Shown here: in pieces, positions 58,644 to 60,552 of the stretch
Numbering within the stretch: the stretch's first letter is position 1
Layout: each line of letters opens with the position of its first letter
DNA from: Giardia intestinalis
Taxonomy: Eukaryota
Assembly (NCBI GenBank): GCA_000002435.2
Contig: CM018792.1
Reading direction: 5' to 3' (one strand)
DNA: 64,000 nucleotides
Position numbers and translations under genes: made by a program
Notes under the pieces: generated by a model
Seen by the model: only the letters and a program-made list of their open reading frames with translations
Database searches by the model: none
Told to the model about the DNA's origin: nothing

Positions 58644-60552
58644 TCACGCCTTCCCCCTGCACAGGAACCACCAGCAGAGGAAGCCCACGAGGCCCCCCAC
58701 GACAGCGACCACGGCGACGGCAATGCCCGCGATGGCCCCCGTGCGGAGGCCGCTCCTATTACTGCCAGAGGACACACAGGAGGCCCCAGCATCATCAGGG
58801 CTGTACCCATCGTTGCACACACAGACAGAGTTATCATCAGTGGAGTTGCTGGGACAGCCATCCACGCATGACTTCCTCCCAGGGCTCACCTTCCCACTAC
58901 TACATGCCTCGCACATGTCATCCCTGTTGCAGTGGGAGCATCCCTCAATAGCACATGCGAAGCACCCACTACCATCCCTGTTGGGCTTCTTACTACTGTC
59001 ACAGGAGGTACACACAGCAGCAGTCATGCCACCATCAGATGGAGCTGCTGGGGCTGTACATGCTGAGCAGCCATCCACCCCAACGTATGCCTTAGTATCT
59101 ACTAGTGTGCCTAATGGGTTACCACATGCCAATACAGACTGATTCTGATTGGTTGCCCCTGGGACTACGAAGTACTTATTATTGGCCGCCTCTGTGCATA
59201 TCCCATTGTTACCTGCGGTCTTGCACATGTAGTTGCCTGGTGGACTCTGAGTGCTATAACAGCCACCCATGTACAAGAAGTAGTTGTTAGTGCATTGTGT
59301 ACATACACCTTGATCACATTGATTATTTGCTTTAGCACTATTACACTTCCCATCTATAGGATACGTATTAGCTTCTCCACAGTATGAGCAATAATGATGC
59401 TCTACACCCTTATCATCAATCACTATGGCATCACAGGCACCAGAGGTACCACCACAAGCAGTGTCATCCTCACAGGTCTTCACACATGTATAGTCATCCC
59501 CCGCATCTCCATTGGATTGCTTCCTGTAGTTAGGCTTACATTCAGTGCACTTGAACCCATTATTGTTAGAACATAGACTACAGCCTTCACGGCCACCATC
59601 TGTTGTACTGTCACAAGCAACGCACTCACCAGTAGAGCCGGGTTGTTTCATGAAGAATCCAGGCTTGCATTTAGTGCACTTATCATTGCCAGCTTGAGTG
59701 CAGGTGGCACAGTTGGCACCACAGGCTTCACATGTAACCGTACCACCATTCCACTATGTAATATCCGTCGAGGCACTCCGAGCAGGTCGGCTTGGCTCCG
59801 TTCTTTACATGTTTACACCCGGCGTCCCTTTATTAGCTTCTAAACTTACTCATACAACACATGCTTGGTGCTCCATCATAGAATGGGATCCGTCACGTTA
59901 CTTGCGCAGCCTTTTGCATCGACACAGGTGTCGTGCCATCGATGGCCGTCTCACCATCTTCTGACCACCGCAGTGTGCACTTCGGCTTCTTGGTAGTCGA
60001 ATCAACCTCACACTGGGTACATGCTTGATCTATCGTGTTGCAAGGAAGGCACTTCCCCGACTCCGGGTCAGCATAAGTGTTTCCAGTGCATCCATTATTA
60101 TTCACGCATGACTTGTCAGTCTTCAGGTACTTCCCCTCTGGACACGATGTGCAATGATTCGGACCACTTCCATCGCAGGTCAGACAGGACTGATCACACT
60201 TCTCACATGCATCACCCTTCTTAATGTATCCATCTTGGCAGACAGTGCATGTGGCCGGTCCGCTAGTGCCCGTGTGGGAGCATTCTGAGCATCCAGCGAC
60301 TCCCATGACCCCGTTTCTATCTATAGTATCGGAGCACAAGATGCACTCACTACCCTTCTCTGATGGTGTAACTGGGTTCTTGAACAGGCCGTTAGCTGTA
60401 TTACAAGCAGTGCACAGTCCTCCCTCAGCCTTTGTGCATATCTCACTGCCAGGGTGTGCATCCTTGTTGTAGCACCCGCCCATGAAGAGGAGTCTCATAC
60501 TATCACTATCACCCCCACACCACATAGCACTATCACTATCACTGTACAGCAT
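58644..60552 (-). pseudogene. VSP array cassette C: near-identical to B, but with a ~280-bp patch of many small deletions (multiple frameshifts) and an in-frame 54-nt insertion in the tail module
   Basis: ORF pieces 59893..60552 (MLYSDSDS... start) and 58644..59651 (..CRGKA end). The stretch 59700-59990 differs from the same stretch of B (57780-58070) almost only by 1-3 nt deletions. An extra GSGCFACAIEGCSHCNRD segment lies at ~58920-58975. Confidence 0.75.

Follow-up and report, generated by a model that had tools for sequence, protein, structure and literature searches.

The window analyzed here, a 64,000-nt stretch of Giardia intestinalis DNA, carries at 54.8-64.0 kb five variant-specific surface protein (VSP) family units, referred to below as cassettes A to E. 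They lie head-to-tail on the minus strand with a period of 1.83-1.95 kb. Cassette C contains a short patch dense in small deletions relative to the neighbouring cassette B. With a probability that we put at roughly 70%, this patch is a consensus artefact of a long-read assembly of G. intestinalis WB, produced where B-type and D-type templates were mixed, and is not the real sequence of C. The five units are as follows.

54835-56735, minus strand: cassette A; D-type patch segment (from ~55882); frameshifted at a G run at 55259-55262.
56748-58631, minus strand: cassette B; intact 627-aa open reading frame (ORF) that matches Pfam VSP and ends in CRGKA but lacks a signal peptide.
58644-60552, minus strand: cassette C; predicted 5'-truncated VSP (pseudo-VSP, psiVSP) whose patch-free parts encode exactly GL50803_114122 / XP_001703902.1 (vsp213, 645 aa).
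60565-62358, minus strand: cassette D; D-type patch segment; degenerate 5' end, no ATG.
62436-64000, minus strand: cassette E; D-type patch segment; runs past the window end.

The array may continue beyond cassette E, outside the window. A global alignment of the cassette regions of B (56736-58643) and C (58632-60564) was used to delimit the patch and its surroundings.

59748-59974 (227 bp): the patch in C, with 18 deletions and 3 substitutions relative to its counterpart in B.
57799-58053: the intact B-type counterpart, encoding residues ~193-278 of the 627-aa ORF.
58919-58972, minus strand: C-specific 54-nt insertion, in frame, encoding 18 aa of the GSGCFACAIEGCSHCNRD type and adding two CXXC motifs.

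The 18 deletions remove 1-3 nt each and 29 nt in total, and the alignment contains no insertions; an example of a deletion junction reads CCGTACCACCATTCCACTATGTAATATCCGT. The substitutions are at C 59856, 59909 and 59912. Between common anchors the B segment has 292 nt and the C segment 263 nt, and their longest common subsequence (LCS) is 260, which gives the same minimal description as the alignment. To the left of the patch, C is identical to B over 59476-59747 (272 bp), and to the right over 59975-60552 (578 bp), where the identity continues into the next cassette junction. Further left, at 58745-59475, B and C differ by ~55 ordinary in-frame substitutions and small indels, as well as by the 54-nt insertion. 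Because this insertion is present in the 2007 protein described below, it can be taken as a genuine length variant of neighbouring cassettes. The initial annotation had reported about two dozen events, nearly all small deletions, over ~280 bp, with a kilobase on either side identical to B. The patch is real and all four examples quoted for it are present in the sequence; the count of events is 21, and the identical flanks are shorter on the left and as long as given above on the right.

The patch breaks the reading frame of C, with a net change of -29 nt and stops in all frames. All 21 events fall within 227 of 1077 bp that are otherwise identical (~3e-14), leaving the remaining 850 bp free of events, and 18 of 18 indels are deletions (two-sided binomial P = 7.6e-6). 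Chance is excluded as the cause of both the clustering and the single direction. Neutral pseudogene decay was considered and rejected, as it would leave scattered substitutions, insertions and deletions, and what was found is a single patch with perfect flanks and no insertions. On this point the first reading of the sequence, which had argued against decay, is borne out.

The direction of the changes was assessed against the second version of this segment in the array, which is found in cassettes A, D and E. This version and the blocks that bound the affected tract are listed here.

61616-61907: D-type version of the segment in cassette D; the versions in A (from ~55882) and E (from ~63448) differ by 1 nt each.
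59731-59746: left boundary block, 16 nt identical in B-type and D-type, CATGTAACCGTACCAC.
59974-60117: right boundary block, ~140 nt, 98-100% identical in all five cassettes.

The D-type and B-type segments are of equal length (292 nt between anchors) and about 25-40% divergent. Seventeen of the 18 deletions overlap alignment columns in which B and D differ (null 11.8 +/- 2, P = 0.004). The edit distance between C and D is 82, compared to 99 between B and D, despite the 29 nt that C lacks; size-matched random deletions gave edit distances to D of 105.8 +/- 3.4, with a minimum of 91 in 2000 simulations. The same trend was seen with the LCS, which is 218 for B and D and 221 for C and D. Once the three substitutions are reverted the value for C returns to 218, and therefore none of the 29 deleted bases is needed for the maximal common subsequence of B and D. 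Random deletions lowered the LCS with D to 204.4 +/- 2.3 (maximum 212 of 1500), and deletions placed in slippage contexts lowered it to 206.1 +/- 2.0 (maximum 212 of 800). Each of the three substitutions brings one more match to D. What C has in the patch is B-type sequence minus ~40% of its B-specific bases, with three replaced by D-type bases and all shared bases kept. Errors confined to template-discriminating positions, with common positions untouched, are what mixed templates are expected to leave, and this is the pattern observed.

The extent of the affected tract follows the same logic. It begins just past the 16-nt block and stops at the final B/D difference ahead of the ~140-nt block; outside it C equals B exactly, including positions where B and D differ. 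Simple gene conversion from A, D or E was rejected, since the five-way alignment shows C to be B-type in the patch. C shares 260 of 263 bases with B by LCS, and the patch holds three D-like substitutions, no D-specific insertions and a net loss of 29 nt, which is not the composition of a conversion tract. Random deletions, or a low-coverage raw read, were ruled out on two counts: the simulations of edit distance and LCS, and the missing insertions. Two other stretches of the array are rich in indels (E 62570-62667 compared to D, and A compared to D at 56298-56722). These contain mixed insertions, deletions and substitutions and represent true divergence; the net change in E is 39 nt, in frame.

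An independent version of cassette C is available from the Sanger era. The best database match to B was XP_001703902.1 (GL50803_114122, vsp213, 645 aa), from the 2007 Sanger assembly of WB. Translated C and this protein agree at all 192 residues upstream of the patch and all 367 downstream of it, and the match includes every residue that distinguishes C from B as well as the 18-aa insert. Across the patch, XP_001703902.1 is B-type and uninterrupted. The 2010 VSP catalogue enters the counterparts of A, B and C as separate consecutive members of a linear array (PMC2996952), with the following properties.

vsp211: 462 aa, 3'-incomplete, 57 Cys, 21 CXXC, 48.0 kDa; exactly the first 462 aa of A.
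vsp212: 626 aa, 72 Cys, 24 CXXC, 64.4 kDa; matches B (627 aa, 72 Cys, 24 CXXC, 64.5 kDa).
vsp213 (GL50803_114122): 645 aa, 76 Cys, 26 CXXC, 66.2 kDa, complete; exactly XP_001703902.1.

Since vsp211, vsp212 and vsp213 match A, B and C, the Sanger-era data resolved three separate neighbours, with C intact. The separate entries weaken the worry that the old model of C is a collapsed B/C chimera. The patch therefore disagrees, at the protein level only, with an independent high-accuracy sequence of the same isolate. Most likely, judging from this older protein, the true sequence of C at the patch is intact B-type, as in GL50803_114122. These results also support the initial annotation in its suggestion of a consensus or assembly error: the older WB protein is intact across the patch, and the changes run in one direction and are aimed at bases that discriminate between paralogues.

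How such a patch might have arisen is suggested by the way in which long reads are assembled. Aligners for noisy long reads and consensus methods based on directed acyclic graphs (DAG) handle mismatches as insertion-deletion pairs. If reads, or pre-corrected reads, of B-type and A/D/E-type were piled over a tract of 230-250 bp at the consensus step, neither base would gain a majority where the types differ. Many B-specific bases would then be lost and D-specific bases almost never added, while shared bases would be kept. The result would drift to the common subsequence of both types and show deletions only, together with a few substitutions towards the D-type. Correction with Illumina reads would be expected to fail at this site, as perfect B-type reads would map better to B and to vsp1269, which has the same segment. 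Both the pipeline step responsible and the origin of the window in the PacBio-based WB assembly are what we infer.

In a toy model, B-type and D-type templates served to generate noisy reads with 8% insertions, 4% deletions and 1% substitutions; their alignment to a B backbone allowed no mismatches, and a base or insertion was kept only if its support exceeded 50%. With 35-40% B-type reads, the rest being D-type, the consensus had a length of 258-267, an LCS with B of 255-265 and an LCS with D of 219-222. The values observed for C (263, 260 and 221, respectively) are reproduced by the model. At 60% B-type reads only 0-2 bases were lost and at 70% none, such that the consensus was nearly perfect from 60%. 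Pure B reads at one- or three-fold coverage gave insertions and random losses. The re-assembly of WB relied on HGAP, Quiver and Canu, on joining contigs that overlapped and on filling gaps with PBJelly (PMC7000408). Its authors report frameshifts caused by PacBio, the correction of only 85 indels by Illumina pile-up, and an excess of apparent allelic variation at VSP regions (PMC7000408).

Several observations weigh against template mixing. The simulation is a toy and not the actual pipeline, and the overlap between simulated and real deletions, base by base, is modest (7-10 of ~30). Cassette B is intact despite having the same D-type neighbours; mixing must therefore be specific to C, and one has to assume in addition that a collapsed cassette, an allele or a contig join was involved. 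Whole mis-registered reads of D, A or E were rejected as the source of D-type sequence, as they would have damaged the neighbouring divergent stretches of C, and these are perfect. The comparison of C with the 2007 sequence is at the protein level only. Finally, the origin of the window in the PacBio-based assembly is deduced from the flanking proteins; these match KAE8304521.1 (acyltransferase) and KAE8304520.1 (GL50803_00112784), from G. intestinalis ATCC 50803/WB clone C6, exactly, and equally their counterparts in the 2007 protein set.

If templates were mixed, the D-type template would have come from an array member collapsed onto C and differing from it only by a D-type tract, from a second allele of C with such a tract, or from an artefact arising locally when contigs were merged. 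VSPs are enriched in structural variants within an isolate (PMC7048089). There is some chance, though not a large one, that the second template is real, with the tract 59748-59974 of C converted to D-type on some chromosome copies of the tetraploid WB or in a collapsed array member. The assembler would then have averaged both versions, and the 16-nt and ~140-nt identity blocks would bound the converted tract.

Explanations that dispense with a second template account for part of these data. The initial annotation had proposed a low-coverage or mis-polished stretch, and a generic technical error of this sort could come from one or a few noisy long reads (at a contig end, a stitched overlap or a PBJelly fill) that stayed unpolished owing to ambiguous mapping between B and C. 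The patch is indeed short and sharply bounded, it lies inside more than 1 kb common to B and C where polishing is ambiguous, and the pipeline included contig stitching and raw-read gap filling. Moreover, 12 of the 18 deletions are in homopolymer or short-repeat contexts, compared to 7.9 expected (P = 0.045). However, random errors would not spare all D-shared bases or point all substitutions at D, the LCS of C with D is 221 compared to at most 212 in 2300 simulations, and a raw PacBio-like read would hold many insertions, of which none is seen. Low coverage or poor polishing would thus leave errors that are random relative to the D-type and include insertions, and as a cause it does not stand; template mixing fits. 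We regard a generic error as improbable. It is very unlikely, in turn, that the patch is a faithful copy, by gene conversion, of a third and unseen type of sequence, for instance a degenerate piece of a VSP at another place in the genome. VSP genes are segmental mosaics, as exemplified by vsp1269 with its B-type segment in a D/E-type context. The patch, however, is B minus bases (LCS 260 of 263), and its donor would also need to be B-type and frameshifted, which merely displaces the problem. No patch-specific reading frame was found among 5.8 billion proteins, a weak test given that the control search missed XP_001703902.1.

The deletions might instead be real and reside in a silent psiVSP, for example if C formed a heteroduplex with a D-type cassette in an attempt at homeologous recombination and this was repaired aberrantly. 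Cassettes without a signal peptide and initiator are thought to be non-expressed, so that frameshifts would be tolerated, and cassette A is frameshifted too. The D-type bias could in principle mean that both sequences interacted, and VSP regions are enriched in intra-isolate structural variants (PMC7048089). Against this, no known repair or mutation process strips bases at mismatch sites while almost never copying those of the partner. True conversion tracts hold donor bases and insertions, whereas only 3 of ~74 D-specific positions in the patch are D-like and insertions number zero. Eighteen independent events within 227 bp with perfect flanks are incompatible with neutral decay. In the Sanger-era data C has its specific flanks and no interruption, and A, B and C have separate entries; the intact older model would have to represent a different laboratory line or a chimeric Sanger consensus. 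Real deletions are accordingly given little credence.

Searches for other copies of the patch and its relatives were carried out at the protein and nucleotide levels. A 387-aa concatenate of all open frames of the patch had no match at E <= 10 in a word-indexed protein search, a result of little weight as the control missed a known exact match: the 351-aa intact C segment, an exact substring of XP_001703902.1, did not return that protein. Exact-product look-ups for XP_001703902.1, B, two C fragments and KAE8304460.1 found no other DNA copy. When the flanking genes were looked up, nothing but short-read Logan contigs came back, and these reach just 250-290 bp into the array. None of 224 retrieved proteins combined B/C-type flanks with a D-type patch. 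One scan of JGI metagenome contigs with a pattern fitting either version of the patch start gave 0 matches and was uninformative. The paper that compares Be-2 and WB-C6 contains nothing on frameshifts or pseudogenes.

In isolate DH (assemblage AII; GCA_000498715.1, AHGT01000028.1, 10001-12547), a single, divergent 848-aa 'partial' VSP lies at the orthologous position beside the acyltransferase. Its identity to parts of the WB cassettes is 70-88%, and the patch region is unalignable to it. The contrast between one VSP in DH and at least five cassettes in WB means either that the sub-assemblages truly differ in array size or that the short-read assembly is collapsed here. The vsp1269 protein (KAE8304460.1, 689 aa, = M83934) is full-length with a signal peptide and initiator, and its gene is the first member of a linear array on chromosome 4. 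It holds the B-type segment (57799-58053) exactly at the protein level, with D/E-type sequence downstream, which indicates that silent cassettes and an expressible gene share mosaic segments. Such sharing fits the proposed role of arrays in recombination.

The assignment of the units to the VSP family and to its silent members is based on several features. B scores 135.5 bits with Pfam VSP (PF03302) and the intact C (XP_001703902.1) 134.7 bits; for the two fragments of C the values are 38.5 and 109.3 bits, and cassettes A, D and E each have a match above the 31.4-bit cut-off. B contains 72 Cys and 24 CXXC motifs, and intact C contains 76 and 26. Both have a C-terminal transmembrane segment and CRGKA, ending in ...GLVGFLCWWFLCRGKA*. 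The cassette N-terminus, MLYSDSDSAMWCGGDSDSM..., lacks a hydrophobic leader, in contrast to KAE8304460.1, which begins with MFQLIPLFVASALMAAC. The cassette start MLYSDSDSAMWCGG... aligns near residue ~90 of this full-length VSP. The ATG context of the cassettes is GTGAATGCTG and differs from the T/CAATGTT initiator of expressible VSPs. The 2010 catalogue marks vsp212 and vsp213 as 'no Inr', that is, without an initiator (PMC2996952). A psiVSP/VSP linear array consists of at least two head-to-tail units with tiny or overlapping spacers and downstream members without start signals, and this arrangement was found here. On their sequence, the units are thus predicted to be 5'-truncated pseudo-VSP cassettes of a linear array and not expressible VSP genes.

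Between C and B, the distance from the CRGKA stop to the next ATG is 12 nt. At 58632-58646 and at the equivalent junctions, the spacer reads cttaggtagtga, followed by ATG. An AGTGAAT motif overlaps the ATG of the following cassette, and resembles the Giardia polyadenylation signal. The 5' end of cassette D (62361-62434) is without the MLYSDSDS... start present in A, B and C, and compared to A it shows deletions of 15, 9, 6 and 5 nt and in-frame stops. This degeneration differs in pattern from the C patch in that larger deletions are mixed with substitutions. Cassette A has GGGG (55259-55262) where D (60993-60997) and E (62825-62829) have GGGGG, within 300 nt over which A, D and E are otherwise 100% identical. 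The missing G frameshifts A into ORFs at 55257-56735 and 54832-55218. This difference resembles the homopolymer errors that the WB re-assembly paper describes; for A, the 2007/2010 entries (vsp211) stop short of the site. Other genes of the window that relate to the array or its family are listed here; the first of the two VSP-family ORFs off the array sits in the G+C-rich (58%) first 4 kb of the window.

53416-54576, minus strand: single-copy acyltransferase gene that flanks the array, identical to KAE8304521.1 / XP_001704595.1.
12-1973, plus strand: VSP-family ORF, 653 aa, 429 bits (Pfam VSP).
32187-33731, plus strand: VSP-family ORF, 514 aa, 175 bits (Pfam VSP).

Taken together, the patch is probably a consensus error from mixed templates, situated in a psiVSP array of a known type, and not a real feature. 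Cassette C (GL50803_114122, vsp213) is then probably wrongly frameshifted at the patch in the WB reference. Patches of this kind would distort counts of intact and degenerate psiVSPs, as well as analyses of VSP pseudogene decay and of indel spectra. The comparison of LCS values with simulations, which asks whether private indels remove only bases unshared with another repeat type, is a cheap and read-free flag for mixed-template errors in tandem gene families. Mixing would also point to a hidden second version of the tract, in a collapsed cassette or an allele, and would bear on the exchange of segments among silent VSP arrays. If allelic conversion is the source, the patch would be the footprint of a recent and still heterozygous segmental conversion between silent psiVSP cassettes. 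Such conversion has long been proposed as a source of new Giardia VSPs and has not yet been caught happening.

The array resembles the VSP linear and pseudo-VSP arrays described for Giardia (PMC2996952; PMC7000408) in its head-to-tail members, its downstream members without initiator and signal peptide, and the mosaic relatedness between members; the spacer is 12 nt here, compared to a published mean of 60 bp. It is on chromosome 4, and A, B and C match vsp211, vsp212 and vsp213. The array itself is therefore no different from those described, whereas the patch is not a described property of such arrays. Errors in the consensus of collapsed or cross-recruited near-identical repeats are a known class of long-read assembly artefact (HGAP pre-assembly, DAG consensus, Quiver). 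The patch shares with these its clustered, one-directional small indels in one copy, its perfect flanks, its placement at discriminating positions and the preference of short reads for the error-free copy. It differs from the typical PacBio residue of isolated 1-nt homopolymer indels in having 18 events, with 2-3-nt deletions, in 227 bp, and in its drift to the common subsequence of two types that are 25% divergent. Segmental gene conversion, as in Borrelia vlsE and the mosaic VSGs of trypanosomes, is similar in its short tract bounded by identity blocks, its silent cassette and the presence of a second cassette type. A conversion tract carries donor bases in frame, however, and the C patch carries almost none, is frameshifted and loses bases only. 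Segmental conversion has been proposed, and not shown, for psiVSP arrays of Giardia (PMC2996952). A conversion variant that stayed hidden could at most have supplied the second template from which the patch in C appears to have been assembled.

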